From: Clostridia bacterium
GTDB lineage: Bacteria > Bacillota > Clostridia > Christensenellales > UBA1242
Assembly (NCBI GenBank): GCA_017537515.1
Contig: JAFYKO010000122.1
Location: 3,866 to 67,865, forward strand
Reading direction: 5' to 3'
DNA length: 64,000 nucleotides
The notes beneath the pieces are model-generated. The model made no database searches and was not told where the DNA came from. It was given only the letters and a program-made list of their open reading frames with translations. Position numbers and translations under genes: made by a program. This document shows positions 12,562-45,474 of the stretch, piece after piece (positions within the stretch are counted from its first letter, which is position 1; each line of letters opens with the position of its first letter).

Positions 12562-12602
12562 AATGATTACCTCGGTTAAAGTTTGTGGTTGCCTATGTCC
12601 CA

Positions 12603-18192: not shown

Positions 18193-18236
18193 TGGAATAT
18201 CCTCGGTTTCGGGTGGTTGGTTGTCTTTACGTCCTA

Positions 18237-19475: not shown

Positions 19476-19510
19476 TAGAGCATACCTCGGTTATTGGTTG
19501 TCCGAGGTAT

Positions 19511-19560
19511 AATATAACAAAATACCTGCTTATTGCAAACAGGTATTCTAAATAATAAAT
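19511..19560 (-). promoter_or_regulatory. phage promoter, weaker -35 (TTTGCA/TTGCAA), with inverted repeat
   Basis: -10 19511..19516. IR arms aatacctg 19521..19528 and caggtatt 19540..19547 with an 11-nt spacer. Confidence 0.6.
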
Positions 19561-19572
19561 GTTACATTTTAC

Positions 19573-20376: not shown

Positions 20377-20642
20377 TATATCTTGAAGTCCTCTTGTTCG
20401 TTCAATTCCGTAGCAAGCCACATGCGGTCAACGGGTGCGACGGCAGCACCCCTAGCCAATCGGTGAGGTGTATCAATGCCGTTGTAAATAAGGTCCCATT
20501 TCATATATTGGTCCCTGGGGAACAACTTGTCGGGGCGGTAGCGTGTCTTCAAGTCAGCCACCACGACATTGCCCATAACGCACTGCGGATTCACTCCGCT
20601 GTTGTTGTCCAGGAACCGTTCAATCGTTTTAGAGTCTGCCAT
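20376..20642 (-). CDS. hypothetical protein (88 aa)
   Basis: ORF track. Confidence 0.55.
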   Translation of the reverse strand: MADSKTIERFLDNNSGVNPQCVMGNVVVADLKTRYRPDKLFPRDQYMKWDLIYNGIDTPHRLARGAAVAPVDRMWLATELNEQEDFKI

Positions 20643-25492: not shown

Positions 25493-27754
25493 TTAAGCCT
25501 CCTGTGCAAGCGACACAGCCAAAGTCTGCGTTTGGCTGTATGCGGTAATGTAAACGTCCACAAAGCGAGCCACGCCCTTGAAGCGGATTGCATAGTCAAA
25601 GCGAAGCACTTCATCACCGATAACGTTCTTGTCGGCACTGACGATACCTTCTTCAATGTAGTTCTTGTCAATGAAGTTTTGGTTCAACTGATTAAGAACT
25701 GCAAGACCACGGTTGACAGTGGATTGGTCGTTGTATTCAGCCACGAATGCCTTCATAGCGTCATAGATAGCGAACTTCATCCATAAGAACGAAATAATGC
25801 AGTGAATGTCGGAAAGCGACGTGTCGGTAAGTTGCGACGTGCGTTCTTCCCAAATGAAGTAGCCACCGTCTTCAATGACAGGGTTAATCTTCAACTGACG
25901 GGCGAGCATATTGCGTTCGGGTCCGCTGAACTGCTGCGACAGGGACAGACAAGCAATCTGTCCGTAATTGTAGCCGAACGGGGGACGTGCTTCAATGCCG
26001 TCGTTGTAGTGGCTGTTGAGCAAGTCAGCGACCAAGCAAGCCATAGTCACAGCCGTTCTCTTGCCTGCCAGGGTGCGGTAAGCATACTGACAGTAGTCGG
26101 CAATAAAGCGGTTGCCGTGACGACCCGTAAGGTTGCCGAACACGTCGGTAGAAGCAGCACGACCAATGTTAGACAGACCCAAGGTCGCTTCATTGGAAGC
26201 CGTGATTGCGGAAATGTAATCCGCAGGGTTCATAATGTCGCCAAGGTTCGGGGTAGCAAGACAACGCCAACGGGTAAGGTTGTCCCCAAGCAACACTTGG
26301 AGTGCCTGCGAGTAGGCGTAGGACTTGTTCTGCCCAAGAATCTTGTTTTCCTTAATCATACCCTCAAAGTAATGGAGTTCATTAGTAATCGGGTCGTTTT
26401 CGTAATCAATGGTGTAGTCGCCAAAGATTTCGCTAGACTTCGGAACAAGATACTTGGAACCACCCATAACAGCGTCCATCTGCATAGAAATGTAGTTGGA
26501 ATCAAAGTCGTCGTAAGACATAGACACCACGAAATCATTCTTGCAGTAGGTCTTGTAGTAGGAAGCCCAATACTCATTCTGCTCACCCATATACATATAG
26601 GTGTTGCGGTTTTTAAGATAGAGTTGGGTGCTAATGTTGAACTTCGCAACATAGCCGTCGCCCTTCTTTGCAACCGTCACATTACCGCACGGGAAGCCGT
26701 AGAAGCCAGGTGCGAGTTTACGGGTAGAAGTCGGGTCTTCGGCAATCGGGAGTTCCACGGTAGCCGTGAGCGAAATAGACAGACCGAAGCAGTTGAGTTG
26801 CTGCGGACCGCCATCCTTACCCGAATACAGGTAATAGACACCATACTTTTCGTTTTCGTCGGAACCCGAACCTTCCACACCCACACCAGGGGTATAGACA
26901 AGCGGGGTGTCCCAATCTTCTTCAATGACGTGCTTGCCGTCTGCGTAAGTGGCACCCTTGACCGCTTCTGCAAACTTGTCAAACATACCCCAATCGGAGC
27001 CGTCAAACAAAGCGGAGTAGTCAAATTCAGCCATACGGTTCACACGACCATTCACGAAAGCGGTAATCTTGACAGGGTGTTCGCCCTCGTCACCGCTACC
27101 GCTACCGCCCGCTGCTGCACCGACCAGGAAGCCGTCCAACTTGAAATCGCCCGAAGCGGAAATAAGGTTGGCAACGTCGGGATTGAATGCGAGTTCTGCG
27201 GGAACGTCTTCGTCAATGTGGTTTGCACCGTCAAAGTCAAACAACTGCACACGGACGGAACGACCTTCCTTTGCGTAAGCAGACTGCGTAATCGGCTGAC
27301 TTAAACGCACGACGACGTTCTTCTTGTCCTTGGAGCAGTAATCGCCTTCGCCCTTGAAGTAAAGGTAGGATTCGCTGTCTTCAACAGGGGCAGCGATAGC
27401 CGAAGCGGGAAGCATAGTGTTCACGACCAACTTGCCGTCTTCCACCGTAAACTTCATAGCACCGAACGGAGTGTCCGACGGGAGCATTTCGGGGTCCTTT
27501 GCACGGCAAAGAACCTGCGGGACCTTACGCTGTGCGAGCAAGTAGGCTTCCATAGCAGCAAGCCCGTGACGCTCCATATTCGGAGTGCCGAACGTCTTCA
27601 CGTAATCGTCTTCGCTAGAAATCAAGGTTGGTGTATTACAAAGTCCCCTGTCTGCTTCAATGGCACCCGCAGAACGGAAACCGATTGCAACAGAAGAACG
27701 CTGCGATTTATCAATGAGGTAAACACCTACGCCTGCGGAATCATTAACGGGCAT
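25493..27754 (-). CDS. contractile tail sheath protein (753 aa)
   Basis: Sheath-tube-chaperone-TMP synteny. N-terminal GVGVYLIDKS...FGTP pattern resembles the PGVY.E start of sheath proteins. Size is typical. Confidence 0.75.
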   Translation of the reverse strand: MPVNDSAGVGVYLIDKSQRSSVAIGFRSAGAIEADRGLCNTPTLISSEDDYVKTFGTPNMERHGLAAMEAYLLAQRKVPQVLCRAKDPEMLPSDTPFGAMKFTVEDGKLVVNTMLPASAIAAPVEDSESYLYFKGEGDYCSKDKKNVVVRLSQPITQSAYAKEGRSVRVQLFDFDGANHIDEDVPAELAFNPDVANLISASGDFKLDGFLVGAAAGGSGSGDEGEHPVKITAFVNGRVNRMAEFDYSALFDGSDWGMFDKFAEAVKGATYADGKHVIEEDWDTPLVYTPGVGVEGSGSDENEKYGVYYLYSGKDGGPQQLNCFGLSISLTATVELPIAEDPTSTRKLAPGFYGFPCGNVTVAKKGDGYVAKFNISTQLYLKNRNTYMYMGEQNEYWASYYKTYCKNDFVVSMSYDDFDSNYISMQMDAVMGGSKYLVPKSSEIFGDYTIDYENDPITNELHYFEGMIKENKILGQNKSYAYSQALQVLLGDNLTRWRCLATPNLGDIMNPADYISAITASNEATLGLSNIGRAASTDVFGNLTGRHGNRFIADYCQYAYRTLAGKRTAVTMACLVADLLNSHYNDGIEARPPFGYNYGQIACLSLSQQFSGPERNMLARQLKINPVIEDGGYFIWEERTSQLTDTSLSDIHCIISFLWMKFAIYDAMKAFVAEYNDQSTVNRGLAVLNQLNQNFIDKNYIEEGIVSADKNVIGDEVLRFDYAIRFKGVARFVDVYITAYSQTQTLAVSLAQEA

Positions 27755-28919: not shown

Positions 28920-29029
28920 TTGAGGAATACTCCTAATTTTCAGTATATACTAGACAAAATATAAATAAAATTTTTAGCACGTTCGCAACCATTATAGGCT
29001 TCAAACATATTTTATTAAAAGTGCCTGCC

Positions 29030-29058
29030 TTGACAAATGTTGCTCAACAAATTATATT
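29030..29058 (+). promoter_or_regulatory. plus-strand sigma70-type promoter ending 7 nt before the ATG (leaderless transcript predicted)
   Basis: TTGACA 29030..29035, 17-nt spacer, TATATT 29053..29058, then taagcgt and ATG at 29066. Confidence 0.6.
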
Positions 29059-29065
29059 TAAGCGT

Positions 29066-30704: not shown

Positions 30705-32213
30705 TTAGAACGGTTCGGGTTCGCCCATTTCAGCGGGGTTCGGGGCTTCGTTTTCGCCCCCGTTCGCTTCGGGTCCTTCTTCGCCACCCTCGCCACCTGC
30801 GGGGCTGTATTCCTTTTCAACGTCGCTAATCACGTCGTTTTCTTCTTCGTCGGATTCTTCGCCACCCTCGGTAGAACCGCCATTGTCGTCGTTCACAATC
30901 TGTGTGATAGCGTCGGCAAGAATGCCAATGACATTCATATTGTCTTCGTTCTTGTGATACGACAGGGCGTTCTTCAAGGTCTTGCAGGCTTCGCCAAGAG
31001 CCTGGAACGATTCAACAGCGTTCTTGACGGCTTCTTCTGCGTAGATAACTTCGTCGTCAAATTCGCCCGCCAGGGAAGCGTCCTTGACAAGTTTATCGCA
31101 GCAGTGAAGCACGGACTTCGTAAGGACTTCAAACTTCTTACCGAGTGTCGGAGCCTTGCGGACGTAGGATTCAACGACGATACCCACGACAGCGAAGCCT
31201 TCTTCAACTTCGGCAAAGGTTTCAGCGGATTCAAGGGCTTCGTCTTCAAGGTTGAAGAACAGGGAAGTAAAAGAGTTCCACAAGGTAGAAATCTTGTCCT
31301 TGAGCGTAGAAACAAGTTCTTTGAGTTTGTCAATAAGACCTTCGGACACAAACGCTTCGGTCGGGATAGTATCAATATCGCCCTTGGAAAGCGTAGTGAT
31401 TGTGGTCTTGATAGTTGCTTTCGGGGTGGACGCTTCCTTGACAATCTGTTCCACCAGGTCACGGAGTTCCTTGAACTGCTTGGGGTCAATGACCGCTTCT
31501 TCAATCTTCGGAGCAGAATCAAGCAAGGCGTTCATACGTTCAAGAACAGGCGTGAGTTTTTCAACGGTGTCCTTGTTCTTTACCCCGTGAGTAGCAGAAG
31601 TGACAGCCACAAGTTTCACAACGTCTTCTTCGGACATAAGCCCGTCAGCGATGCTGTCCTTGATAGTCTGTGCGTCCACTTCAATAGCACGATTAGCGTT
31701 GTCAACCCAGGCGGTCACAACCTTGTCGCCACGGGTGGCATAACGGCTGTCAATAACTGTCAGCAGTTGGGTCACGTCGGGAATGTTCTCATAATCGGAA
31801 TAAAGGATTTTGAGAGCGTCTTTAAGGTGTTTTTCAACGTCGGCAGCAGCCTTGACTTCGGGGGACTTATTGAACGTGAGTGCGTCCTTGATACCCTTTA
31901 CGGACTGCTGCTTCAAGAACAGGACGTGAGCGGAAAAGTCATTGAGAGCCTTGATAGACGCTTTCAAATCTTCCTTGGATTGAGCCAGGTCCTTCGCCTT
32001 GTTTTCCATAAACTTGCGGTGTTCTTCCAGGACGTTGATGATTTCGCCCAGGTTCCGCATTTTGGAAAAGTCAGTTCGCTTGGACATACCCGCACCGAAA
32101 CTTGTGGCTTCGGATTTCTTGGATTCAGCCCTGCGAGCAATCGGGCTACGCTGTGCAGCGGGAGCCACACGGCTTTCAAACTTATGTGTATTGATTTTCA
32201 ATGCCATATTCAA
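30705..32213 (-). CDS. head-module protein with N-terminal propeptide ending in ESKKSE, coiled-coil body and acidic tail (502 aa)
   Basis: M(NM)ALKINTHKFES...RRAESKKSE/ATSFG. Long helical middle. C-terminus GGEESDEEEND...GEPEPF. Confidence 0.65.
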   Translation of the reverse strand: MNMALKINTHKFESRVAPAAQRSPIARRAESKKSEATSFGAGMSKRTDFSKMRNLGEIINVLEEHRKFMENKAKDLAQSKEDLKASIKALNDFSAHVLFLKQQSVKGIKDALTFNKSPEVKAAADVEKHLKDALKILYSDYENIPDVTQLLTVIDSRYATRGDKVVTAWVDNANRAIEVDAQTIKDSIADGLMSEEDVVKLVAVTSATHGVKNKDTVEKLTPVLERMNALLDSAPKIEEAVIDPKQFKELRDLVEQIVKEASTPKATIKTTITTLSKGDIDTIPTEAFVSEGLIDKLKELVSTLKDKISTLWNSFTSLFFNLEDEALESAETFAEVEEGFAVVGIVVESYVRKAPTLGKKFEVLTKSVLHCCDKLVKDASLAGEFDDEVIYAEEAVKNAVESFQALGEACKTLKNALSYHKNEDNMNVIGILADAITQIVNDDNGGSTEGGEESDEEENDVISDVEKEYSPAGGEGGEEGPEANGGENEAPNPAEMGEPEPF

Positions 32214-32220
32214 TTCTCCC

Positions 32221-32769
32221 TTAATCTACACGATATGCGAGCATACCGTTTTCAAGTCCAACTTCCTTGCTGTCATAGATAGCAAGGTGCCAAGCAGGGT
32301 CAAGGCGGTCAATGTTATATTCAGCAAATCCCCTGTAATTCACACTGAAATTCGGGGCAACCTGTTCTTGGACGAATTTAGCAAATTCTTCTTTGCCCAA
32401 ATCGTCTGCAAGACTTTCAATTTCGTCCCTGTCTTCCCCGTCAGCGTCAACAAAGTCCAGGAACGTATCGTTCCCGAAGTAGTCAATGGCTGCACCCAAA
32501 ATGGTATAGTTGTCACGGAACTGCGATTCAAGGTCGTCAACGGCTGCGTCGTAAGCAGACTGCTCATTGTCATACACACAATACGTGGCGGTTTCCCCGT
32601 CTTTCATTTTCACGTCAAGGACATATTCGGGTTCCAGGTAATCGTAGTCCTTGGAACTTTCCTTTACATTACGAACAGGGACACCTAGTTCCTTTGCAAG
32701 TGCCTTACGTGCGTCGCCCAGGTCTTCGCACTTCTTTGTTTCGTGAACACGGATTGTCATTTTAGACAT
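32221..32769 (-). CDS. head-module protein with N-terminal targeting-type peptide (182 aa)
   Basis: MSKMTIRVHETKKCEDLG shares the M..KI.VHE.KK.E pattern. Confidence 0.6.
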   Translation of the reverse strand: MSKMTIRVHETKKCEDLGDARKALAKELGVPVRNVKESSKDYDYLEPEYVLDVKMKDGETATYCVYDNEQSAYDAAVDDLESQFRDNYTILGAAIDYFGNDTFLDFVDADGEDRDEIESLADDLGKEEFAKFVQEQVAPNFSVNYRGFAEYNIDRLDPAWHLAIYDSKEVGLENGMLAYRVD

Positions 32770-32782
32770 AATCTATTCTCCA

Positions 32783-33502
32783 TTATGTGAGTTCGCCTTT
32801 ATTGGGCTTCACTCCGAAATTTTCTGCATACACGTAGTAGGGCTGCGAAGCACCTGCCATAGTAGCGTCAACGTAAAGATAGGTTTCTTCAAATACAGCG
32901 TCGCCCTCGCCCTTTTCCTTGTCATAGTGACCGTCGTCTGCCATAGCCTGTTCGGTTTCTGCAACGTCTAACAGAACAGACTTGTCAATCTTTTCTGCAA
33001 GAGCCACAGCCACTTCCAGGGCTTCTTCGGGGTTGCGGTCGCCATTGTGGACGTTCACATAGAACACGTGGGTGTCATACCCGCTTCCCGTCCACAAGTG
33101 AACCTGGGCGTTAGCCATTTGCTGCATAGACGGGTAATAGGAAGTTGTGCGATACGAATTGCCGTCCGTAATGTTTACGGAACACGGGTATTCGTCGTCG
33201 GGCATAAAGCCATTTTCGTTTTCAATTTCACGGGTCCCGAACAATTCGTTCTTCACGAACAGGTCAAGCAACTTGCGAGCCTTTTTAATCACGCTGTCGG
33301 AAACGCTGCTGTCTTCAACCAGGATAGCGTCCTTTTCGCTGTCGTAGCCTATGGGGAGTTGTTCCCCGTCCACGACAATAAACGACTGCTCGCCTTCAAG
33401 AACGCCCAGGGCGGTGTCCTGTGCGTCGTCTGCGTCGGGATAGAGTTTAGACAGGTCGTCGTTCTCTATAAAATAAACTTTTTGATTGTCGGGTTCAAGC
33501 AT
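32783..33502 (-). CDS. hypothetical acidic protein (239 aa), possibly leaderless
   Basis: No SD. TATATT (33509..33514) ends 6 nt before the ATG. Confidence 0.55.
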   Translation of the reverse strand: MLEPDNQKVYFIENDDLSKLYPDADDAQDTALGVLEGEQSFIVVDGEQLPIGYDSEKDAILVEDSSVSDSVIKKARKLLDLFVKNELFGTREIENENGFMPDDEYPCSVNITDGNSYRTTSYYPSMQQMANAQVHLWTGSGYDTHVFYVNVHNGDRNPEEALEVAVALAEKIDKSVLLDVAETEQAMADDGHYDKEKGEGDAVFEETYLYVDATMAGASQPYYVYAENFGVKPNKGELT

Positions 33503-33547
33503 AACAGAAATATAAATAAAATTGAACAGACCAAGTAATCGCCTATA

Positions 33548-33574
33548 TGAAAAAGCACCCCTTTTACGGGGTGC
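33548..33574 (-). terminator. rho-independent terminator
   Basis: Stem gcacccc / ggggtgc (33555..33574), loop ttttac, followed on the minus strand by TTTTTCA. Confidence 0.7.
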
Positions 33575-33594
33575 CTCACAAAAGAACTAGGCGA

Positions 33595-35700
33595 TTACTG
33601 AATCACCAGATACATTCCCTTGTCGCTCTTGTATGCGTCAAGGTCGCCATCGTCAATGGCTGCTTGAATACATTCGCCCTTGGATTTGTTTTTGTCCTTA
33701 TACTTGTCGTCAAGCATTTCGCCGTAAACACGTTCTTCGTCAGCCCAATCCGTGTATTGGAACAGATTGTCAAAGAACTCAAAGGCAGAACCCTGGATTT
33801 CGCCCATTTCGGAATAGTATTCCCAAAGAGCATCCCAATAGTCTTCGTCTTCGTCAAGGTAGGCAGCAGCAGCACACAGACGCATAAACGTGTTATAGTC
33901 AATGTTCATCTTGATTGTGTCACTGATACCTTCGGACTTTTTGGATTCGGAAAGAACCTTACTAACTTCTCCGTAGTCCAGGTTATCGCCCGCAGCATTC
34001 GGAAGGAAATCACCGCCCTTGTCGGTCCACAAGGAACTGACACCCTTCGGGTAAGCATCGCACACAGCGGACACGTCAGCCAACTTGCCACGGATAGTAA
34101 TAGTGCAGCCGATAGCGTCGGATTCCACGTTCGGGAACTTTTTCTTAATCTGCTTCAAGGTGCGTTCAATCCACTTCTCGCTTGAACTATCCAACGTTCC
34201 TACAACCACGGTGTCCTTTGTCAAGGCTTCGGATTTCTTGGCTTCAGGCTTTTTCGCCTCGCCCTTATCCCTACAACGCTTGCAAAGACCACCATAGCGG
34301 TCATAATCATATTCGGTCATAACTGCCCCGCAAGAGTCGCAGCGTTCCATACTCTCTTTCTTACCGTCCTTACAAGATTCGGGTTTCTTGGATTCTTCCA
34401 ACTTACCACCAAGAACATCTGCAAGTTCTTCGGAGGCTTCCTTGCTAGGCAGATGAACGTAAAAGACATTCTCGTAATAGTAATCGGCCCGTCCATCGCC
34501 CCCTTCTATCTTGATAGTAAATTCGGGGTCGCCCTTTGCCTGGTCTTCATCAAAAACAATATCATCGCCATCACCCTCATAGGTATAATACTTGGATAAA
34601 ACATCCACTACATCTTCAAGCAAATACTCTGCGTCAGCATATCTCAAAAGGTCTTCAAACCCAATGTAAGTTTCAATTTTAGTAGTGACACGCTCGTCGT
34701 TATTGCCAACCTTCCAAAAGCCGAAGCAGGCTCCGTCACCTTCGGATGCTCCGAAGAAATATCCGTCGGGTGCAATGCCGTTGAGTGCGTCAGTGAGTTC
34801 GTCCACAAGCATAGACTTCGTTTCGTCGTCAACGTCGTCCCAGGACTGAATTTCAAGGATTTCGGGATAGTCCTTCAAGAACTTGGAGTGGGCGGTTTCG
34901 TCGTGCTTCAAGGCGTTAAGGAACTTCGGAATAAGGTCTTCGGGCTTCAAGGTGCCATCGGACACAACCTTGTCTTTCAAGGCTTCAACACCCTCGGACT
35001 TCTTGGATTCGGGGACCTTACTAACCACTGATTTCAGCCAACCCTTCGGGTCCCTCATAATATCGTCAATGTCAGTCCCTTCATCAACCCATTCGCCATT
35101 ATCGTCGCACACATAAACGCTACTCAACTCATTATCTAGGAACTGAACACCGAACGTCAATGTCTTACCACCACTAGCATACAGATAATCAAACAAATAA
35201 GTGTCCTGCGAAACACCCTCAATGTCGTCTGTGAAGTAATCGTCAAACACAAACATTTTAAGGTCATCAAGATTCTTCAAAAACGCCCTGGCTTTTTTAA
35301 ACATATCATTCCTAGCGTCTTCGTTAAAACTCTTCGTGGGAAGACCATCAGACTTCTTGGATTCGTTCTTGTCACACCAATCCTGGATAGCCCGTACAAG
35401 TTCGTCAAGTTCGTCAACATAGTCGCGTTCTTCGGGTAAGTCGGTGTCCATACTGCCCTTGCAGTCGTCACGATACTTCTTGACCTTTTCAAGAATATCC
35501 TTGTAGGAAAATTCAGTCGTGCCGAAGTTCAAGTCAATGTCGCCCAAGCCGAACTGACCATTGTCTTCGGAACCACTGTGAACGAACGCAAAACCCTTTT
35601 CAGTGAGCGGGTCGTATTCATCAAGCCACGGGGAAAAGCCACCATAACCTTCAATGTGGTGGCAGAAGTCGGTATATTTTGCTGCGTCCTGTTTAATCAT
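33595..35700 (-). CDS. head-module polyprotein, ~6 segments separated by ESKK(S/P)(E/D) linkers (701 aa)
   Basis: Linkers NESKKSD/G, PESKKSE/G, EESKKPE/S, EAKKSE/A and SESKKSE/G. One segment carries a zinc ribbon, CDSCG...CKRC. Confidence 0.7.
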   Translation of the reverse strand: MIKQDAAKYTDFCHHIEGYGGFSPWLDEYDPLTEKGFAFVHSGSEDNGQFGLGDIDLNFGTTEFSYKDILEKVKKYRDDCKGSMDTDLPEERDYVDELDELVRAIQDWCDKNESKKSDGLPTKSFNEDARNDMFKKARAFLKNLDDLKMFVFDDYFTDDIEGVSQDTYLFDYLYASGGKTLTFGVQFLDNELSSVYVCDDNGEWVDEGTDIDDIMRDPKGWLKSVVSKVPESKKSEGVEALKDKVVSDGTLKPEDLIPKFLNALKHDETAHSKFLKDYPEILEIQSWDDVDDETKSMLVDELTDALNGIAPDGYFFGASEGDGACFGFWKVGNNDERVTTKIETYIGFEDLLRYADAEYLLEDVVDVLSKYYTYEGDGDDIVFDEDQAKGDPEFTIKIEGGDGRADYYYENVFYVHLPSKEASEELADVLGGKLEESKKPESCKDGKKESMERCDSCGAVMTEYDYDRYGGLCKRCRDKGEAKKPEAKKSEALTKDTVVVGTLDSSSEKWIERTLKQIKKKFPNVESDAIGCTITIRGKLADVSAVCDAYPKGVSSLWTDKGGDFLPNAAGDNLDYGEVSKVLSESKKSEGISDTIKMNIDYNTFMRLCAAAAYLDEDEDYWDALWEYYSEMGEIQGSAFEFFDNLFQYTDWADEERVYGEMLDDKYKDKNKSKGECIQAAIDDGDLDAYKSDKGMYLVIQ

Positions 35701-35727
35701 AATGCAGGTCCTCTCTTTGTTAAAAAA

Positions 35728-36609
35728 TTACTTTGCGTAGTAGTCCATAGCGTTGTCAAACGCTGCGTAGTTGGCTTTCTTACGATATTCGGAAGTCGTA
35801 GCCTTGTCGCTAGACGAAGCCCAATAAATGTCATACGGCTCTCCTACAATGTCTCCACTAGGCTTTTCACGTTCGCCCGCCATAACCACAGCAAACACAA
35901 CCCCGTCATCGTCCTTGTAGCAGTCAATGATTTTCTTTGCGTCTTCAATGGCATCGTCGTCGGAGTAGTATGTTTGGGAAGCAGCCATATCGTCAATGCG
36001 GTCTTCTTCCCCGTCAGCGTCAATGCGGAACAGGTCAATGGTGAACACGTCCTTGTCGCCCTCGGCTTCGGACTTCTTGGATTCAGCAGTTTCAACCTTG
36101 TCGGTAAAATCCGCAAAGGTAATACCGCTGTCGTCGTCCGAACCACCGAACAACTCACGCATCACGTCGTCCTTAATATCCTGGTCAAATACCACAACTT
36201 CGTCGTAATAGCACCAAAGTTCTTCAACTTCGTCCAGGCTATCAATAGTGCCCGCAAAAGAATAGGGGCGACCCAAATCCTTGTTCGTGACTATGATTTC
36301 GTAATAGCCCTTATAGACGTTGAACTTGCCGTCCATATAGTAAGTGCTTGCGTCAGTCATACCTGCGAAATGTTCCATTTTACGGCAGCACTGCGGGTCG
36401 GCTCCGTCCACTTCGTCAAAGTCCTCCTGGTCATACGGCTGCAATTTAAGGGTTCCGTCGTCATTCACAGCGATTACTTCTGCAAACGCCATTTCGTGAA
36501 TCAACTTACCCCCATCCTTTTCAGCGTCGTAATCTACGAAATCGCCAACCTGGAAATTGCCGACGGCTTCGGACTTCTTGTTTTCGTGGACGTTAATCTT
36601 CATAGTCAT
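35728..36609 (-). CDS. head-module protein with N-terminal targeting-type peptide and one internal ESKKSE (293 aa)
   Basis: MTMKINVHENKKSEAVG and TAESKKSEAEG. Confidence 0.65.
   Translation of the reverse strand: MTMKINVHENKKSEAVGNFQVGDFVDYDAEKDGGKLIHEMAFAEVIAVNDDGTLKLQPYDQEDFDEVDGADPQCCRKMEHFAGMTDASTYYMDGKFNVYKGYYEIIVTNKDLGRPYSFAGTIDSLDEVEELWCYYDEVVVFDQDIKDDVMRELFGGSDDDSGITFADFTDKVETAESKKSEAEGDKDVFTIDLFRIDADGEEDRIDDMAASQTYYSDDDAIEDAKKIIDCYKDDDGVVFAVVMAGEREKPSGDIVGEPYDIYWASSSDKATTSEYRKKANYAAFDNAMDYYAK
36067..36084 (-). repeat. 18-mer GAATCCAAGAAGTCCGAA (encodes ESKKSE), perfect copy
   Basis: Identical 18-mers at 36067, 36905 and 49177. One-mismatch copies at 32109, 33931, 34993 and 37931. 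Copies with 2-4 mismatches at 34228, 34378, 35348, 36568, 37244, 38204 and 44374. Confidence 0.9.
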
Positions 36610-36630
36610 AGTGTTTACCTCTCACTGTTA

Positions 36631-36679
36631 AATATAACTAAATACCTGCTGATTGTCAACAGGTATTTTGAAATTTTTA
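36631..36679 (-). promoter_or_regulatory. sigma70-type phage promoter with inverted repeat
   Basis: -10 36631..36636, -35 36654..36659, 17-nt spacer. IR arms 36640..36648 and 36660..36668 with an 11-nt spacer. Confidence 0.75.
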
Positions 36680-38254
36680 TACGAAATAGAACAGGTTGCT
36701 GCTACGGGCGGTAATGGCATATTTCTTGCCGTCATTATCACGGAGCAAGGCACCGTTCATTCCGTAAGTCCCACGGCTCACACCGACAAGTTCAATGCCC
36801 TTCTTGCGAAGTTCCTTTGCTTCTGCGTCGGAAATAGTCGTAATGTCTTCGGCTTCCCCGTAGCGGACCATATCTTTCAATTCTTTCTGTTTGAGCGACA
36901 GGCTTTCGGACTTCTTGGATTCAGCATTACGGGTCCAATCATTCTTCGCACAATAGCCCTTGATTACACTTAAAAGTTTATTGACTGCTTCTTCGGGGGT
37001 GTAATCTTTTGCATAATACGAAACAGACCTATCAAAGTCATCATCCGTATAAGTGTGGAAATACTTTGTCCCCACAGTCCCCAACTGCTGCGAAAGTTCA
37101 TTACGCTTAACAAAAATAGTATAAGCAGCATCGGTGCCACTGCGACTATCCGTGATTTCGTCATATTCAATGTCAAAGCCATAATCGTCCTTTACGGCTT
37201 CCAAACCTTTAACGACTTTATCCTGCCAATCGCTTATGAACGCATTGGACTGCTTGGATTCAGCAGTGTTGCTTTCGTCGTCACGCCAATCCGCTTCAAT
37301 TTCTTCCCAAAAATAGATATTCATTTCACCAATGGAGTGTCCCTCATCGGGAATGCCTATAAGGTCTGCGATTTCTTCGCAAACGCCATAGCAGCGGTTC
37401 CACTGATTTGCGTCGGCTTCGTCACGGGTGTCATCGTCTTCGTAATCGCCAACCACAACGAACTTAAACCCGTAGCCGTCCCATTCAAAATTGTTGTCCA
37501 AGATTTCAACAATATCGGACATATTTTCCTGGACGGCTTCAAGGTCAAGGTTGTCTGCAATGGTCTTGCGGTCCTTGTCGGAATTAGACCACCTGTCAGC
37601 CCATTCTTTCATACCCTTAAAGATATTAGTGACTTCTTCTTCCTTTGTGCGGTTTTCGTGCTGCTTGCTTTCGGGAAGGTAGTCACCATCAAAGTTGCGG
37701 GTGGAAGTGTAATACCACTTGCCGTCCTTGTCGCCATAGTAGGACTGTGCTACAAGGTTGCCGTTAGTGTCAAGGGCGTAACCTGCGGTATGGAGCCACT
37801 GCGAGTCCTTAATGTCGTTGAACTGCTTGCTAGTCGTGACTTCCACGGCTCCAAGTTGCTTCATCTTGTTAATAAGGTCTGCACGGGAACGATACTGACG
37901 CTTACCGCCCAAACGCTTCGGGGGAAGACCCTCGGACTTCTTGGATTCGCTTGCTGATTCCTGTGTCAATTCATACCCATCAATAGTTTCCATAAAACTA
38001 TTCCAACGCACTACCAACTTATACTTAACACCGTTGTCAGTCATAGTGTAGGTCGTAACACACGTCTTCGTGCCATTAGGGTATTCTTCTTTTTCGGACA
38101 ACCATTCCCAACCCCAACCAATAAGGTCATCTTCACTATACGGTTCACCGTCCATTGTGTCCATATACGAACGGAAATCCTGGATAAATTCGGATTCAGC
38201 AGCCTCGGACTTCTTGCTTTCTTTAACGGCAATCTTGAATTTCTTGTTAGACAT
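36677..38254 (-). CDS. head-module polyprotein, ~6 segments separated by ESK(K/Q)(S/H)(E/N) linkers (525 aa)
   Basis: MSNKKFKIAVKESKKSE/A, then SESKKSE/G, PESKQHE/N, AESKQSN/A and AESKKSE/S. Confidence 0.7.
   Translation of the reverse strand: MSNKKFKIAVKESKKSEAAESEFIQDFRSYMDTMDGEPYSEDDLIGWGWEWLSEKEEYPNGTKTCVTTYTMTDNGVKYKLVVRWNSFMETIDGYELTQESASESKKSEGLPPKRLGGKRQYRSRADLINKMKQLGAVEVTTSKQFNDIKDSQWLHTAGYALDTNGNLVAQSYYGDKDGKWYYTSTRNFDGDYLPESKQHENRTKEEEVTNIFKGMKEWADRWSNSDKDRKTIADNLDLEAVQENMSDIVEILDNNFEWDGYGFKFVVVGDYEDDDTRDEADANQWNRCYGVCEEIADLIGIPDEGHSIGEMNIYFWEEIEADWRDDESNTAESKQSNAFISDWQDKVVKGLEAVKDDYGFDIEYDEITDSRSGTDAAYTIFVKRNELSQQLGTVGTKYFHTYTDDDFDRSVSYYAKDYTPEEAVNKLLSVIKGYCAKNDWTRNAESKKSESLSLKQKELKDMVRYGEAEDITTISDAEAKELRKKGIELVGVSRGTYGMNGALLRDNDGKKYAITARSSNLFYFV
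36905..36922 (-). repeat. 18-mer GAATCCAAGAAGTCCGAA (ESKKSE), perfect copy
   Basis: See 36067..36084. Confidence 0.9.
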
Positions 38255-39869: not shown

Positions 39870-41519
39870 CTAGCCGTTGCTAGAACCGCTACCACTACCG
39901 CCATTCGGAGTCGTAGTCAAGAAGACATTGACATCCGCAGGGGCTTCGGCATCCTTCGTAATCACGATACGTTGGACAAATTCAGCCACAACAGGTTCAA
40001 TAGCCTTCCAAGACGCAATAGCACGTTGAGTTTGGAACGGGTTATCTGCCACAGGCATAGTGTCAGTCAAGAAGACAGGCATATACGTTGCACACACAAC
40101 AGGTGCTTCAAACGGGCTATTATCGCTGCTATAAGCAGCAATAACTTCGTTCGGAGCCACGATGGTGTTGGAACGGATAACCGTGATACCTTCGTTTTCA
40201 AGGGTGCCATACACGTGCGGACCCACAAGGTTGGTCTGCGGAGCAAGACGGAAACCAGGGAGGGACGCAATATACTGACAAGCGACGTAGCCCGCAACAA
40301 TCTTGTTAGCGTGACCCTTACCTGCACGGCTACCGATAGCAGCAGAAGCAGCCTGGATAGCATACAGGAAAGACTGACGGTGTTCAAATTCGCTGATACC
40401 TGCGGTCTTGTTGAGATTCCAGGTAATCGGCTTCCACTTGTTAGCACAACGGACATAGGCAGCAAGAATCTTTTCGGATTCAGCCATAGCCATATGACCC
40501 GTAAGGTCAGCAAGAACTTCGTCGGACGCAGCCTTACCAAAACGCTTGTTGAATTGGAAAGACTTGAACGTGCCCATCATTTCCTTCAAGCCAATGATTT
40601 CGGCACTGACAACCTTGTTGTCAAGAGCGTATTCAATAGCAGGAACGTCGGGAGCCTTTTCAAAGTCAACGTCATAAGTCACACCACCCTGGTAGCCCGT
40701 CGGAATGGTAAGAACCAGGTCGGGACCAACAGCAGCAGCGGTCACGGAAACCTTACCATAGAAAGTCGGCAACTGACCAGGACCACCGCAAACACCAACC
40801 ACGTCTTCAACGTTGCCGTTCTTGTCAACAAGACGGACGTTAATCGGGGTGTTCCAACGGAGGTTGCCAACGCCATACTTAATGGTAGCAGAACCGTCAG
40901 CAGCGATAGCAAACTGACGTTCACTCATATACTGCGTCGGGGAAGCCTGCCAACCCTTGAGGGCGTTGAAAGTGATAGCGTCAAAGTTCTTGGCTGCGAG
41001 TTGTTCGGCAGTCAGTTCGGTGTCGGGGGCAGCAACGGGACGACCACGGGTGTCAAGCCACTTCTTCCAGGCACCTGCGAAAGTCTTGTCGCCTTCAAAC
41101 TTACCGTCGGCACCCATCCACCTGTCTTCGGGCAGGGACGGAAGTCCTTCCTGGGCAGTCAGCGGATAGCCGTGGGTAAAGGTCTTCTTGAAGTAGATAA
41201 GACCCTGGGATTCTTCAAGCGTCTGCACACTTGCCAACTGCGGAGCAATAGAAAGTGCGTAGGTAGCAGAAATAAGGTCAAGAGCAACACGGGGCAACAC
41301 ACCAAGGCTAGAAGCCGAGGAATTTTCGTTCACGAAACTTTCGTAACGCTTGTAGTTGTCCATCTGCTGACCAAGGTTGAACATAGCGTTCTTGGACAAG
41401 GTGCCCTTGAACGACGGGGACTTGGCAAGGGCTTCAAACTGCTTGCCATAGCGGGCTTCGTAGGATTCTACGAGGCGGTTGTATTTCTGATTAGACATTT
41501 CTTCAACGGAAGTCTTCAT
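39870..41519 (-). CDS. major capsid protein, HK97-fold / T4 gp23-like (549 aa)
   Basis: Follows the protease, core-protein and scaffold genes and is followed by the strongest terminator in the window. LPRVALDLISATYALSIAPQLASVQTLEESQGLIYF resembles the gp23-family ...IAFDICGVQPMNSPTGQVFAL block. Confidence 0.75.
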   Translation of the reverse strand: MKTSVEEMSNQKYNRLVESYEARYGKQFEALAKSPSFKGTLSKNAMFNLGQQMDNYKRYESFVNENSSASSLGVLPRVALDLISATYALSIAPQLASVQTLEESQGLIYFKKTFTHGYPLTAQEGLPSLPEDRWMGADGKFEGDKTFAGAWKKWLDTRGRPVAAPDTELTAEQLAAKNFDAITFNALKGWQASPTQYMSERQFAIAADGSATIKYGVGNLRWNTPINVRLVDKNGNVEDVVGVCGGPGQLPTFYGKVSVTAAAVGPDLVLTIPTGYQGGVTYDVDFEKAPDVPAIEYALDNKVVSAEIIGLKEMMGTFKSFQFNKRFGKAASDEVLADLTGHMAMAESEKILAAYVRCANKWKPITWNLNKTAGISEFEHRQSFLYAIQAASAAIGSRAGKGHANKIVAGYVACQYIASLPGFRLAPQTNLVGPHVYGTLENEGITVIRSNTIVAPNEVIAAYSSDNSPFEAPVVCATYMPVFLTDTMPVADNPFQTQRAIASWKAIEPVVAEFVQRIVITKDAEAPADVNVFLTTTPNGGSGSGSSNG

Positions 41520-41537: not shown

Positions 41538-42035
41538 TTAGGCTTTCTTGCCAATTTTGGAACGGAACTTCGCACGTGCTTCACCGATTGCCTTCTTACG
41601 GGCTTCGGCAGTGGAAGTAGAAGTTTTGGCTTCTGCTTTCTTTGCAGCACGACGGGCTTCAAGTCGCTTGCGGAACGCTTCGGCACGAGCCTCGTTGCGG
41701 GCGGGTGCGGTCTGCTTCTTTGCAGAACGACGGGCTTCAAGACGCTTACGGAATGCCTCACGACGAGCAGCCTTGCGGGATTCTTCAGCACCTTCATCTT
41801 CACTACCTTCAACGGAAGCGGAACCAAGAACTTCTTCTTCTTCCACGTCTTCCTTGGAGTTAGTAAGAACTGCGACGGTCACAGAGTTTTCGTTTTCGGG
41901 GTCGGGGGAAACGACAACCTGGATGTCCTTTTCTTCGTCAGCGAAAACAACTTCGGTTTCCTTGGCATCCAACTTAACGTCGCCAACTTCCACGATGCTA
42001 TCTTCTTCACGGAGTTTCTTGCGGAATTTAAGCAT
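41538..42035 (-). CDS. putative scaffolding protein (165 aa)
   Basis: Directly upstream of the capsid gene. Acidic N-terminal half, basic helical C-terminal half with a tandem 26-aa repeat EAFRKRLEARR(S/A)AKK. Confidence 0.5.
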   Translation of the reverse strand: MLKFRKKLREEDSIVEVGDVKLDAKETEVVFADEEKDIQVVVSPDPENENSVTVAVLTNSKEDVEEEEVLGSASVEGSEDEGAEESRKAARREAFRKRLEARRSAKKQTAPARNEARAEAFRKRLEARRAAKKAEAKTSTSTAEARKKAIGEARAKFRSKIGKKA

Positions 42036-42385: not shown

Positions 42386-42745
42386 TTAAGCAACGACTTC
42401 GTTATAAATCTTCCTGGCGTATTCTTCGGCTTCGGCTGCACCGAACGGGGAGCCGTCCACGGGACTGCCCGAAAGACCTGCAAGGATTTCGTCAACCCAT
42501 TCGTCTTCGTTCTGTGCTGCGGTAGGACCATCAGCATAACTACGAATATACCACTTACCACACATTTCAGCCACGGCTTCGTCTTCAATGGTAAATTCTT
42601 CGGTATGACTCATAATTTCGGCACACAGGCTTTCAATGGCTACGGGTGCGTCATACGGCAGGTCATCCAACAAACCTTCGCACTTATTGGACTTATTCGC
42701 AGCAAGACTTTCTTTTTTCTTCTGCATAGAGCATTTGTATGTCAT
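42386..42745 (-). CDS. putative head core protein with MTYKCSMQKKKESL N-terminus (119 aa)
   Basis: N-terminal 14 aa are identical to the neighbour 42770..43459. Lies between protease and scaffold. Confidence 0.6.
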   Translation of the reverse strand: MTYKCSMQKKKESLAANKSNKCEGLLDDLPYDAPVAIESLCAEIMSHTEEFTIEDEAVAEMCGKWYIRSYADGPTAAQNEDEWVDEILAGLSGSPVDGSPFGAAEAEEYARKIYNEVVA

Positions 42746-42769: not shown

Positions 42770-43459
42770 TTAATCTGCTTTAACTTCAATGGTCTTGTCG
42801 CCCTGGCTAAACGAATAGTTGGCGAATGCTTCTTCAACAGCCTTAATGAACTTGTCCGCATTTTCCTGCGTAAGTTGTCGGTAGTCCAAATACATTTGAA
42901 CACTCAAATAATTCCCGATAGTTTCACCACCGTCATATTCACGACCGATAGAAGCAGACAGGGTATAAGCAACACCACGCATAGACCGCTCATACATTTC
43001 TATGGCTGCGACACCCCAAAGGTTCATATCCCCCAAGAAACCCATCAAGTATTCCGTGTAATCGTCATACCCGTCGGAATCCTTTTCGGGAACTTCCCCG
43101 TGGTCCGAAGCATACGCCATATCCGCAGCGTCAATAGCCTTTTCAATTTCATAACCCAACTGACTATCGTGGAAACCCGAACTTTCAAAGAAACCCAAGT
43201 TTCCTACAAAATCTTTCTGCAAGCCTGCCTTGAAACTATCACGGGGCGAACCATCGCTGTAAGTGTTATAAAGCACTTCAACGTCGTGGGCTTCCCACCC
43301 ATCGCCACCCTGCGTGTCGTTCATATCATAGTCTTCAAGAATTTCACGGGCACGGGGTTCAATGAACTTGCTGTAAAATTCTCCTGCCACTACGGGAGCA
43401 GACTCAACCTTTTTGTTAAGACTTTCTTTCTTCTTTTGCATAGAACACTTGTAAGTCAT
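42770..43459 (-). CDS. putative head core protein with MTYKCSMQKKKESL N-terminus (229 aa)
   Basis: Shares its N-terminal peptide with 42386..42745. The same CSMQKKKESL occurs internally in 48610..49569. Confidence 0.6.
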   Translation of the reverse strand: MTYKCSMQKKKESLNKKVESAPVVAGEFYSKFIEPRAREILEDYDMNDTQGGDGWEAHDVEVLYNTYSDGSPRDSFKAGLQKDFVGNLGFFESSGFHDSQLGYEIEKAIDAADMAYASDHGEVPEKDSDGYDDYTEYLMGFLGDMNLWGVAAIEMYERSMRGVAYTLSASIGREYDGGETIGNYLSVQMYLDYRQLTQENADKFIKAVEEAFANYSFSQGDKTIEVKAD

Positions 43460-43501: not shown

Positions 43502-44119
43502 TTACGCCTTGTATTTGTTATACATTTCTTCCACCAACTTCAAGGCTTCGTCTGCGGACTGCGTGTCCTTGATTTCGCTGCCGTTAGCAGCCTCGGCAAC
43601 GACGAAACCGAAAGCACCGACCATACAACTAACTTCCCCGTCTTCGGTATAGGCATTGTCAATTCCACCAGGAACGTCGCCCATATCGTTAATATCGCCC
43701 AGGTAATAGCCTAGTTCAAATTCCTTGCCCTTTGTAACGTCCACAATCTGCTTGGCGTAAGCGTCACGCAGGGCACCCACGTCAATGTAGCCGACAAGTT
43801 CCAGGGCTTCGGGCAGAACAGCCTTTTTGTATTCGTCAGCCATAATAGACTTGACCTTTTCGGCACCAGGATTGTCCTTGAAAGCGACCATAAGGTAATT
43901 GTCGCTCACGGTGGCTTCGTCAACGTCCCAGGACATATCTTCTACATCCCAGGCTGCGTCGGGTTCAACATCTTCCTTACCCTTGAACACAGCAAGTCCG
44001 TTAGCCCTGTAAAGCGACGGAAGTTCGTATTCAATGTCGGATTTCAACGTGGCGGGCAGAAACACAAGACCCTGTGCTTCTGCCTGTCGGCTTTCGTGAA
44101 GATTTATTCGGAGTGCCAT
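43502..44119 (-). CDS. putative head core protein with N-terminal targeting-type peptide (205 aa)
   Basis: MALRINLHESRQAEAQG. Confidence 0.6.
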   Translation of the reverse strand: MALRINLHESRQAEAQGLVFLPATLKSDIEYELPSLYRANGLAVFKGKEDVEPDAAWDVEDMSWDVDEATVSDNYLMVAFKDNPGAEKVKSIMADEYKKAVLPEALELVGYIDVGALRDAYAKQIVDVTKGKEFELGYYLGDINDMGDVPGGIDNAYTEDGEVSCMVGAFGFVVAEAANGSEIKDTQSADEALKLVEEMYNKYKA

Positions 44120-44121
44120 AA

Positions 44122-44418
44122 TTAGTCCCTGTAAAATACCAAACCGTCAGTGCCACCCTTCTTGTCAAGGGCTTCCATAGTGCCACGGAAGTAGCAGGCA
44201 GCGTGGTAAATCGTGGTGGTTTCTTCGTCAAGCAATTTGTTGTCAGCGTCGTAAAGAGCAACCCTGAACCTGCGGTTTCCTTCATCGGTAATAACCACGC
44301 AGCGGTCATCCTTACTAACGTGCCAATCAAGAGCATTGTTAATGTTCAAGTCACCCAGGCGAACGTCCTGGGCTTCGGACTTCTTTTCTTCGTGGACACA
44401 AATTTTCATTTTAGCCAT
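44122..44418 (-). CDS. putative head core protein with N-terminal targeting-type peptide (98 aa)
   Basis: MAKMKICVHEEKKSEAQD. Directly downstream of the protease. Confidence 0.6.
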   Translation of the reverse strand: MAKMKICVHEEKKSEAQDVRLGDLNINNALDWHVSKDDRCVVITDEGNRRFRVALYDADNKLLDEETTTIYHAACYFRGTMEALDKKGGTDGLVFYRD

Positions 44419-44430: not shown

Positions 44431-45474
44431 TTAACGTTTGCTGCCGAGAATATAACCAATCAAGGACCCGTCGTTATCTTCGGCTTCACGGGCTGGTGCC
44501 TTTGCTTCCAAGACCTTAAAGGTCTGCGTTTCGGGCTGCTCACGTTCAATCGCTTCGTAAGTAGCACCTGCACGACGACGTTCGGTCACGTAGGCTTCGT
44601 TCAATCCATTCTTGTTAGCGAACTTCAAGTCACGGATAGTGTCTGCGGACTGCTTCACTTCTTCCTGCAAGCCTTCCACGAACTTCACGATAGACTGCTT
44701 AATGTCTTCGTTCACTTCGGTAAAGTCTTCAAACTTGTAAGTGTCGCCCGTGCCCTTGTCACAATCTGTCATTTCAACAGTATTGTTTTCCAGGCTTTCC
44801 ACAATATAGGTGCTGCCGTCAAGTTCAACAGGTGCCCCAAGTTCCTTTGCAAGAGAAAGCAGGGATTCTGCGACACGTTCCTTAACGGCTTCTTCAACCT
44901 TTTCGTTCTGCTTGCTTTCGGAAATCATCTTCGGCTTTGCGTCCAGGAACCCAGGGTCCTGCACAAAGTCAAAGCGTTCAAGTTTGTAGGTCTTCGGGTC
45001 AAGAATGTCGTTGCCGTCTTCGTCCTTGCCTTCGTAGTCGCCATCGGCACGGGAACTGACAAACATAGTAGTACCCGCACGAAGAATGGTGTAAAGCGTC
45101 TTGCCCATATCCGTATTGTAGATAACAGATTCAGCGATACCCGTCTTCCAATCAATGTTGCGGGTAATGTGGCTAAACTTGCCGTCGGCAATATCTTCGT
45201 CGGTAATTTCGGCTTCGTGACCGATACGACCGAACATTTGTCCGTTGGTCAACTTACGCTGCACGTCTTCGTCCTTGCCTGCTTCTTCCCAAAGTTCGGG
45301 AGTGTAAAGACGGTGGTTACGGCTTACCTTGCCAGGGCAGAAATGCTGACCCTTGACAATGGCGAGAATGGTGCCACCACTTTTAGCAACTTCGGATTGT
45401 GCGGATTCGTCAACACGGGAAATGTCGTCAATGAACTCACACTTAAACGGAATATAATCTTCTGCAATCTGCAT
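44431..45474 (-). CDS. prohead maturation protease, T4 gp21 family (347 aa)
   Basis: Collinear with T4 gp21 as I recall it: SRNHRLYTPELWEEA (gp21 NRNKRLYPKRILEKA), FGRIGHE (LGELNHP), ILRAGTTMFVSSRADG (IRAGWIPGVSSRGLG), FDFVQDPGF (VDAVWGPSA). Confidence 0.85.
   Translation of the reverse strand: MQIAEDYIPFKCEFIDDISRVDESAQSEVAKSGGTILAIVKGQHFCPGKVSRNHRLYTPELWEEAGKDEDVQRKLTNGQMFGRIGHEAEITDEDIADGKFSHITRNIDWKTGIAESVIYNTDMGKTLYTILRAGTTMFVSSRADGDYEGKDEDGNDILDPKTYKLERFDFVQDPGFLDAKPKMISESKQNEKVEEAVKERVAESLLSLAKELGAPVELDGSTYIVESLENNTVEMTDCDKGTGDTYKFEDFTEVNEDIKQSIVKFVEGLQEEVKQSADTIRDLKFANKNGLNEAYVTERRRAGATYEAIEREQPETQTFKVLEAKAPAREAEDNDGSLIGYILGSKR

Follow-up and report, generated by a model that had tools for sequence, protein, structure and literature searches.

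A recurring E-S-K-K-x-E junction separates exchangeable cassettes in putative head-packaged polyproteins of an uncultured T4-like jumbo phage

The DNA analysed here, a stretch of 64,000 nucleotides that we call the window, belongs to an uncultured phage with a T4-type head that is known only from metagenomes; what was inspected is 64 kb out of a roughly 220-kb genome, and the minus strand carries nearly all of the window's genes. Our subject is a set of head-module genes whose acidic products are divided into blocks by a recurring six-residue peptide, E-S-K-K-x-E, which we call the junction. The same peptide follows short N-terminal leaders and closes the catalytic domain of a prohead protease encoded in the same module, and the question considered here is whether it marks the sites at which these products are cut inside the prohead. 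One of them, a 701-aa protein, is 100% identical to the NCBI entry 'MAG: hypothetical protein IKT27_03755 [Clostridia bacterium]' on a 224-kb contig, and 16 related loci are found in IMG/VR, several on contigs of 213-216 kb.

The original prediction named five open reading frames (ORFs) that carry the peptide (30705..32213, 33595..35700, 35728..36609, 36677..38254 and 48610..49569). All of them exist, and independent gene callers on public contigs give the same products for this region (525, 293, 701, 239, 182 and 500 aa). These genes, those of the next paragraph and the protease gene are on the minus strand. The 525-aa polyprotein (36677..38254) opens with the leader MSNKKFKIAVK-ESKKSE (residues 1-17) and continues through blocks 18-108, 109-200, 201-337, 338-450 and 451-525, with junctions at 38204-38221, 37931-37948, 37655-37672 (ESKQHE), 37244-37261 (ESKQSN) and 36905-36922; its last block is a conserved 75-aa C-terminal domain (36680-36904). 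The 293-aa protein (35728..36609) consists of the leader MTMKINVH-ENKKSE (36568-36585) and blocks 15-181 and 182-293, with ESKKSE between them (36067-36084). In the 701-aa polyprotein (33595..35700) the junctions are ESKKSD (35347-35364), ESKKSE (34993-35010), ESKKPE (34378-34395), EAKKPE/EAKKSE (34228-34260) and ESKKSE (33931-33948), and they set off, among others, a 45-aa zinc-ribbon cassette (residues 442-486) and a conserved 111-aa C-terminal block. Since gene callers give 500 aa for the ORF at 30705..32213, its start is probably the ATG at 32207; the resulting protein (30705..32207) has the leader MALKINTHKFESR...RRA-ESKKSE (junction 32109-32126), followed by a conserved 467-aa body that is largely helical and acidic.

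The 319-aa protein at 48610..49569 has three parts, in which block 1-131 ends in ESKKSE (49177-49194) and the middle block is followed by a degenerate ESKKHV (48844-48861), an internal leader of a second type (CSMQKKKESLLAKKNE) and the last block. A 182-aa protein (32221..32769) is made of the leader MSKMTIRVH-ETKKCE (32725-32742) and one 167-aa block, and two further small proteins carry the leaders MAKMKICVH-EEKKSE (44122..44418, junction 44374-44391) and MALRINLH-ESRQAE (43502..44119, junction 44078-44095). The second leader type (MTYKCSMQKKKES) stands at the N-terminus of the proteins at 42770..43459 and 42386..42745 and is the type found internally in 48610..49569. An acidic 239-aa protein of the same gene block (32783..33502) is present in all relatives and has neither leader nor junction. 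The blocks had been described as acidic, rich in Trp and Tyr, and unrelated to each other. They are indeed acidic, with 20.8% Asp plus Glu against 13.2% elsewhere and isoelectric points (pI) of 4.1-5.3; the aromatic enrichment is absent, as Trp plus Tyr amount to 6.3% against 6.4% elsewhere. Paralogy among the window blocks was rejected, there being no detectable similarity between them.

The junction is far too frequent in these proteins to be a product of composition. Exact ESKKSE occurs nine times in the window against 0.002 copies expected from the composition of its 18,338 aa, and a six-frame scan with E-[S/A/N]-K-[K/Q]-[S/P/H]-[E/D/N] finds matches on the minus strand only and in the frames of the named ORFs only. 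The earlier count of 13 copies in four ORFs is right, and becomes 14 (1 + 6 + 2 + 5) when EAKKPE is included; 48610..49569 adds one exact copy. That count had missed the sites at the leaders of 32221..32769 (ETKKCE), 44122..44418 (EEKKSE) and 43502..44119 (ESRQAE), as well as ESKQNE at residues 186-191 within the protease (44431..45474), and the second leader type described above. The core KKxE is found 24 times in 5,446 aa of head-module protein, compared with 3.35 times on average and at most 8 times in shuffled sequences; the other 12,892 aa contain it six times.

In relatives whose capsid proteins are 65-99% identical, the consensus E-S-K-K-x-E is kept, on the coding strand only, with a fifth position that is free (S, N, K, T, P, H, M, Q, C or G) and a following A, S or G. 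Across 166 non-redundant sites, collected with a search pattern that left position five and the following residue unfixed, position five is Ser in 62% and the following residue is A, S or G in 72%, and the ten residues on either side of the motif hold almost no information. The proposal that a small residue follows each copy thus holds for most window copies, the exception being ESKQHE, which is followed by Asn. The exact 18-mer GAATCCAAGAAGTCCGAA occurs in only 27 IMG/VR stretches, mostly contigs of this clade. These patterns support the view that the motif behaves as a processing site whose information is limited to six or seven residues.

Several proteins of the module begin with a T4-like leader of ten residues, of the type M-x-K-M-K-I-K-V-H-E and ending in V-H-E-[S/A] (for example MSKMKIKVHE). 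By pattern match, such leaders, including the following [S/A], are present on six window proteins and on at least 22 distinct ORFs across the window and its relatives, and the KKxE part is missing behind many of them. The capsid targeting sequence (CTS) of T4 also has ten residues, ends in (L/I)-x-E and needs residues 8 and 10 for processing (PMC9026906). Outside the head module, a 75-aa protein encoded at 55396-55623 (minus strand) has an N-terminus, MRKFKKNE followed by A, that resembles a leader plus KKxE, and this protein may be another packaged one.

The gene at 44431..45474 had been taken for a prohead protease of the T4 gp21 family, and we assign its product, on sequence and profile matches, to the gp21/Peptidase S77 family. 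It matches phrog_207 at 3.7e-22 and, over residues 16-188, Pfam PF03420 at E 1.4e-4 (21.9 bits, below the 27-bit cut-off), a family that many of its homologues carry. The sequence alone has no match in the PDB; a family profile of 50 homologues is needed, and matches the T4 gp21 structure 5JBL at E 5.8e-10. In the family alignment S140 and S141 are invariant and H86 and H102 are at least 90% conserved; S141 aligns with the Ser of T4 VASRG, and in the H86 column the T4 chain used for crystallography has Ala, perhaps through an engineered mutation. The idea of a further peptidase in the window was rejected, S77 being the only peptidase family that Pfam finds among the called ORFs. The S77 domain closes with M-I-S-E-S-K-Q-N-E (44902-44919), followed by a 156-aa C-terminal region, and M-I-S-E-S-K-[K/Q]-x-E occupies this place throughout the clade. 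Proteases of the gp21 family are known to excise their own C-terminal region (PMC10052503, PMC9026906). In the wider protease family the first Glu of the site is at least 90% conserved in the context [I/V]-[S/T]-E-S, also where KKxE is missing (VSESLNKGG), and T4 gp21 aligns there with E-I-T-E-S.

Comparison with the relatives shows that the blocks are exchangeable units. Window blocks recur in other genes or positions of relatives, with homology that begins one residue past a junction and stops at the next, and the same cassette may be internal, terminal, stand-alone or placed right behind a leader. For example, block 182-293 of 35728..36609 is a stand-alone ORF in one relative (L016) and an internal part of a polyprotein in another (L003; 1,265 aa as called, 1,270 aa as an open frame), where it begins one residue past a junction. 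In L016 the homologue of 30705..32213 has a cassette homologous to part of 48610..49569 inserted right behind the leader junction, and in L001 the block of 32221..32769 is preceded by an extra cassette and junction. Similarly, polyprotein frames of 656-1,270 aa in relatives end in the 75-residue block that closes the 525-aa ORF, and database homologues place blocks that are internal in the window right behind an N-terminal leader (MSKMKINVRESKKSE followed by ALTKD..., and ...FAKKSE followed by GVEALKDK...). Polyproteins have up to seven junctions per ORF and are as long as 1,265 aa in a gene call on the related contigs and about 1,300 aa in database homologues.

When 240 homologous proteins are divided at the motif, the result is 954 blocks of at least 40 residues that fall into 134 families, two of which are the conserved C-terminal anchors. 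Block lengths are tight within families (for example 75, 110, 95, 105, 99, 63 and 45 residues) and positions within polyproteins vary. Of the homology breakpoints, 39-53% are no more than ten residues away from a junction; for random positions the figure is 13-14%, which makes a three- to fourfold enrichment. The turnover is pronounced even at high identity: L001 and the window share 99% identity in the capsid protein and 98.6% in the protease, and about 13 of the roughly 21 window cassettes have no match in the L001 locus. As the junction is identical everywhere, these observations suggest that cassettes are gained, lost and moved between polyprotein genes with packaging and processing kept; free movement at a common junction would explain the very fast turnover between near-identical phages.

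Other lineages provide a further line of evidence. An exhaustive search with the 525-aa ORF returned 277 representative proteins, and its 75-aa C-terminal block gave 104 matches in 121 newly found representatives, 88 of which end at most three residues from the C-terminus. This domain (...KQKELKDM..AEDIT...GxYGMNGALLRD..G..Y.IT.R.SNLFYFV; P0351-P0429), which is widespread, is also found as stand-alone proteins of 69-77 residues and occurs in several T4-like lineages, may be a capsid-anchoring or packaging domain; neither it nor nine remote homologues matched any Pfam family credibly at E up to 0.1. The stretch that precedes the domain in other lineages differs from that of the window but copies the leader of its own protein. 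The junction ...DESRRPARES... corresponds to the leader MSIKIRVRESAHKKFESRRPARES, which ends in ESRRPARES, directly downstream of an S77 protease with the site V-T-E-S-K-S-K-E. A junction ...[L/M/V]-x-E-S-S... corresponds to leaders such as MVRKYKKLVKES in a phage of about 200 kb, where it lies beside T4-type portal, S77 and Gp23 genes; neighboring proteins there have leaders of the type MKL-I-I-K-E, and the protease carries L-N-E-S-K twice. Finally, the junction ...SRKPIKS... corresponds to the leader MK-MRPIKSGKYIKSG. Relatives whose proteases are 45-53% identical to that of the window keep the leaders and have no ESKKxE polyproteins, and their protease site lacks the KKxE part. Because these relatives keep leaders without such polyproteins, the leader is the older element, and the six-residue junction and the long polyproteins arose within the clade of about 215-224 kb. 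As an observation apart, L054 (regions 11599-14025 and 18148-20403), another T4-like jumbo phage sharing the C-terminal domain, has its Gp23 gene split around a gene for a SegE/GIY-YIG-like homing endonuclease, and encodes an 808-aa protein with intein-splicing domains upstream of the portal.

Structure models place the junctions between folded domains. AlphaFold gives the 525-aa ORF a mean predicted local distance difference test score (pLDDT) of 67 and a predicted template modelling score (pTM) of 0.33, and the 701-aa ORF a mean pLDDT of 64 and a pTM of 0.31; both appear as separate folded domains, and every junction in both models overlaps a segment with pLDDT below 50 between such domains. 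These segments are 1-17, 102-120, 186-200, 322-337 and 443-452 in the 525-aa model and 115-125, 233-236, 434-450, 480-496 and 552-597 in the 701-aa model, and residues with pLDDT below 50 make up 22% and 31% of the two models overall.

The cassettes themselves give few clues to function. Searches of the window proteins against Pfam and PHROGs returned no informative match for the cassettes, and Pfam matches to 60 cassette representatives were restricted to weak zinc-ribbon hits, including Lar_restr_allev, all in one cassette of one relative. In the full proteins these hits fall below the family cut-off; the Lar match is taken as generic zinc-ribbon similarity and was rejected as evidence of anti-restriction activity. 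Foldseek, which the original prediction had advised for each inter-linker block, found nothing in the PDB at E of 0.001 or less for either structure model; in BFVD it returned a single nominal match at E 1.5e-4 that is meaningless (root-mean-square deviation 29.6 over 509 columns) and a T4-like 'Ip6 putative internal head protein' at E 0.1, which is not significant. No sequence similarity to the T4 internal proteins was detected. The anti-defence or takeover role that had been proposed for the released proteins thus finds no support in Pfam, PHROGs, the PDB or BFVD, none of which has a significant cassette match, and assigning the cassettes such a role is speculation. The fast cassette turnover would nevertheless be consistent with a host-interaction role, as has been proposed for the internal proteins of T-even phages (PMC3012670).

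The scheme that we consider best suited to these data is as follows. About ten genes of the head module would encode acidic cargo, several of them as strings of unrelated folded cassettes of roughly 45-250 residues on flexible junctions. The precursors would enter the prohead core by way of the ten-residue, T4-CTS-like leader and possibly of conserved anchor blocks at one end of the polyproteins. There the prohead protease would remove the leaders, split every junction behind its first Glu, its second or both, divide itself at its domain boundary and cut the N-terminal region of the capsid protein, in each case after a Glu. Roughly 20-25 small acidic proteins would be released, kept in the head and carried into the cell with the DNA, so that packaging, cleavage, retention and ejection into the host would form one pathway. 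For the central part of this scheme, namely that it is the S77 protease, acting inside the prohead, which cuts the junctions and that the resulting pieces stay in the head as cargo, we estimate a probability of about 0.55. The idea of cleaved polyproteins thus stands insofar as the motif behaves as a processing site, found at leaders, between blocks and at points of exchange; the more specific claim of a cut after the second Glu is not established.

A cut somewhere inside the junction is likely, and it may fall behind either Glu or behind both. In the hexamer it is the first Glu that coincides with the canonical T4-like site (hydrophobic-x-E, then Ser). Because the first Glu is conserved in the protease family, the leaders end in V-H-E-S and the junctions of sister lineages read [L/M/V]-x-E-S, we regard cleavage at the first Glu, or at both, as at least as likely as cleavage at the second. 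A second-Glu cut is likewise compatible with the small residue that follows this Glu and with block homology that begins there.

Several observations weigh against cleavage by the S77 protease and retention of the products. In gp21-type sites the residue at position 3 is Leu or Ile in T4, Ser, Ala or Gly in phiKZ and Ala in SPN3US. At the junction it is Lys (93%) for the second Glu and mixed for the first, which fits no known specificity of the family. Two junctions, ESKKSD (35347-35364) and ESKQSN (37244-37261), lack the terminal Glu, although the former is ESKKSE in close homologues; because Asp at the cut position prevents processing in T4 (PMC9026906), these two may be left uncut in this phage should the cut fall after the second Glu. 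An N-terminal leader is missing from the 701-aa polyprotein. The proteins of the window's head module are acidic, whereas a basic character is described for the internal proteins of T4 (PMC9026906). Neither a fold nor a family was recognised for any cassette in Pfam, PHROGs, the PDB or BFVD, and the low pLDDT at junctions may be due in part to alignment breaks between shuffled homologues and not to true disorder.

These points leave room for other explanations, the most serious of which is that the polyproteins are scaffold or filler of the prohead core, chopped so that the pieces leave the head before or during DNA packaging, with nothing delivered. The strong acidity of the proteins, which DNA would repel, speaks for this, as do the long propeptides of phiKZ and SPN3US, which carry multiple redundant cut sites for clearance (PMC9026906, PMC10052503), and the one conserved terminal block per polyprotein could be the sole part retained. 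However, the pieces are folded domains of 75-250 residues and not short peptides, the same cassettes exist as stand-alone genes with a leader of their own, and 134 unrelated families with near-complete turnover at 99% capsid identity are ill suited to pure filler; we therefore hold a purely sacrificial core to be unlikely, if worth keeping in mind. A less probable explanation still is that E-S-K-K-x-E is simply a favored flexible, charged spacer in modular virion proteins that stay intact. The predicted disorder of the junctions and a position 3 outside the known specificity of the protease family agree with it, but a spacer needs no invariant Glu, Ser and Lys with a small next residue over 166 unrelated contexts, is not expected right after ten-residue leaders or at the end of a protease domain, and has no reason to covary with the leader in other lineages.

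The mismatch at position 3 could also mean that a different enzyme is at work, a Glu-specific endopeptidase of the host or a further one of the phage, cutting the junction possibly outside the capsid. The window, as 64 kb of a roughly 220-kb genome, leaves space for such a gene; yet within it S77 is the sole peptidase family to be detected, this protease bears the motif at the place where it would cut itself, and only the clade with the polyproteins shows the KKxE extension there, so that we give this explanation marginally less credit than an intact spacer. Lowest of all we place a role of the 18-nt GAATCCAAGAAGTCCGAA as a recombination or other nucleic-acid signal with the peptide as a by-product, which we think very improbable. 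The codon usage is striking at first sight, with TCC for the first Ser at 61 of 71 sites and for Ser at the fifth position at 34 of 34 against a background of 32%, and of three DNA matches to relatives at high identity, two begin no further than 3 nt from a motif. TCC is, however, also used for 72% of E-S-K and 81% of K-S-E contexts outside the motif, and because Ser codons in matching dipeptide contexts are nearly as biased, we invoke no function at the DNA level. Moreover, the fifth codon varies at the amino-acid level with the other residues fixed, the flanking DNA is not conserved, and the motif is always in frame on the coding strand. A DNA-level repeat was rejected on the same grounds, the uniform codons being mostly due to local codon context. 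Shuffling may nonetheless profit, as a secondary effect, from short-patch recombination at the junction.

Cleavage by the prohead protease with retention of the products, the explanation we prefer, has clear parallels in known systems, and we rate the system as a variant of the targeting-leader and prohead-protease scheme of T4. As in T4, with its internal proteins IPI, IPII and IPIII, a Gp23-family capsid protein and a gp21/S77 protease are present; the leaders have about ten residues and resemble the T4 CTS in pattern only (hydrophobic-x-Glu, then a small residue); and the cargo is highly variable between close relatives, with the leader alone conserved (PMC3012670, PMC9026906). The differences are that T4 encodes one small basic protein per gene, whereas here there are multi-cassette ORFs of 293-701 aa with pI 4.1-5.3, and that the six-residue junction E-S-K-K-x-E is an addition. 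In phiKZ, 201phi2-1 and SPN3US, where gp175 or gp245 processes the inner-body and ejection proteins, a gp21-related protease likewise cuts many head proteins after Glu, some of them several times (PMC10052503, PMC9026906). Their substrates, however, form paralogous families with a propeptide and one mature C-terminal protein, in contrast to the unrelated, folded and shuffling cassettes found here, although the conserved terminal anchor blocks give a partial resemblance. The cleavage motif S/A/G-x-E or A-x-E of these phages also differs from E-S-K-K-x-E, which does not fit it, and the capsid protein of the window is of a different lineage from that of the phiKZ group.

The polyvalent proteins of phages and conjugative elements offer another comparison (Iyer et al. 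2017, PMC5512222): each polypeptide joins 2-15 unrelated domains, the genes lie near those of the virion, and packaging and delivery have been predicted. Their defining feature is the presence of recognisable enzymatic domains related to conflict, and a zincin-like peptidase embedded in the protein often does the processing (PMC5512222). By contrast, Pfam finds no such domains in the window polyproteins or the 60 cassette representatives, there is no peptidase domain inside the polyproteins, and processing would here fall to a separately encoded prohead protease acting at a standard junction. Polyproteins of RNA viruses and retroviruses likewise combine one ORF, short conserved sites and a viral protease; what is encoded here is accessory, hypervariable cargo of a tailed double-stranded DNA phage and not a core replication or structural set. 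In herpesviruses the assemblin-scaffold precursor contains a protease that cuts itself from a C-terminal scaffold-like region, to which the motif at the end of the S77 domain would be a parallel. No description of junction-delimited cassette polyproteins in tailed phages was found in the searchable literature, whose coverage is incomplete and which held only the work on T4, on phiKZ/SPN3US and on polyvalent proteins; the earlier suspicion that this organisation had not been described agrees with this.

The surrounding genes include those of a T4-type head. The major capsid protein (39870..41519, minus strand) belongs to the Gp23 family (Pfam PF07068, 41.1 bits against a cut-off of 24.4; phrog_138) and has a candidate maturation site, F-V-N-E followed by N, at residues 61-64 (41328-41339), which in the N-terminal alignment of relatives reads Y-V-x-E-N. 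Megablast of the window DNA against INPHARED isolates returned no similar phage; the nearest isolate capsid proteins, at 29.5% identity, are those of Rhizobium Kleczkowskaviridae, whose compact head module has no comparable polyprotein block. Directly upstream of the capsid gene is a 165-aa scaffold-like protein (41538..42035, minus strand) with an acidic N-terminal half and a C-terminal half of repeated EAFRKRLEARR[S/A]AKK; its counterparts in relatives contain EAKRAE, EARKAE and EARRAE, possible degenerate cleavage sites of the type E-[S/A]-[K/R]-[K/R]-x-E. The tail sheath is encoded at 25493..27754.

Several mobile or unassigned genes are also found in the window. A clear IS605 OrfB/TnpB gene (38555-39742, minus strand; OrfB_IS605 and Cas12f1-like TNB) lies between the first polyprotein gene and the capsid gene; L001, with its 99% identical capsid protein, has no such gene there. 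Another transposase is encoded at 7763-9172 (minus strand; phrog_506, E 2.7e-99). The head module is flanked by two paralogues of about 431 aa that are 71% identical and lie on opposite strands (29021-30394, plus; 53287-54582, minus). They have no Pfam or PHROG match; their motifs GIDMNPNYIG, AIEDLS and NPAYSS give the impression, which we take as an assumption, of a RuvC/TnpB-like nuclease, and the pair could be divergent transposon-associated nucleases or mediators of rearrangement. Elsewhere on the minus strand (10184-10432, 14928-15482, 16101-16904 and 50696-52654) Pfam finds phosphopantetheine-binding (acyl-carrier-like), LemA-family and dephospho-CoA kinase/AAA_18 domains, with tentative assignment to ORFs, and a 652-aa ORF adjoining the head module has a weak family-4 glycosyltransferase match, likewise tentatively assigned.

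If the junctions are cut, they provide a sequence rule for the head-packaged proteins of an uncultured jumbo phage and for the ends of each mature protein, and extend T4-type targeting and processing from single proteins to exchangeable cassette arrays, a route for the rapid turnover of injected proteins that is undescribed in the literature searched. The compact leader-plus-junction tag might then allow a single gene to supply engineered capsids with several cargo proteins that are set free after loading. A broader possibility, which we advance tentatively and consider well short of an even chance, is that leader and E-S-K-K-x-E together form a plug-and-play packaging system, in which any cassette between junctions in anchor-bearing genes is loaded, freed by the prohead protease and injected. 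The 134 or more cassette families would then amount to a sequence-predictable library of injected host-takeover or anti-defence effectors, with related T4-like jumbo phages using leader-matched junctions of their own. More than 100 small folded domains with no assigned function also become candidates for host-interaction screens.

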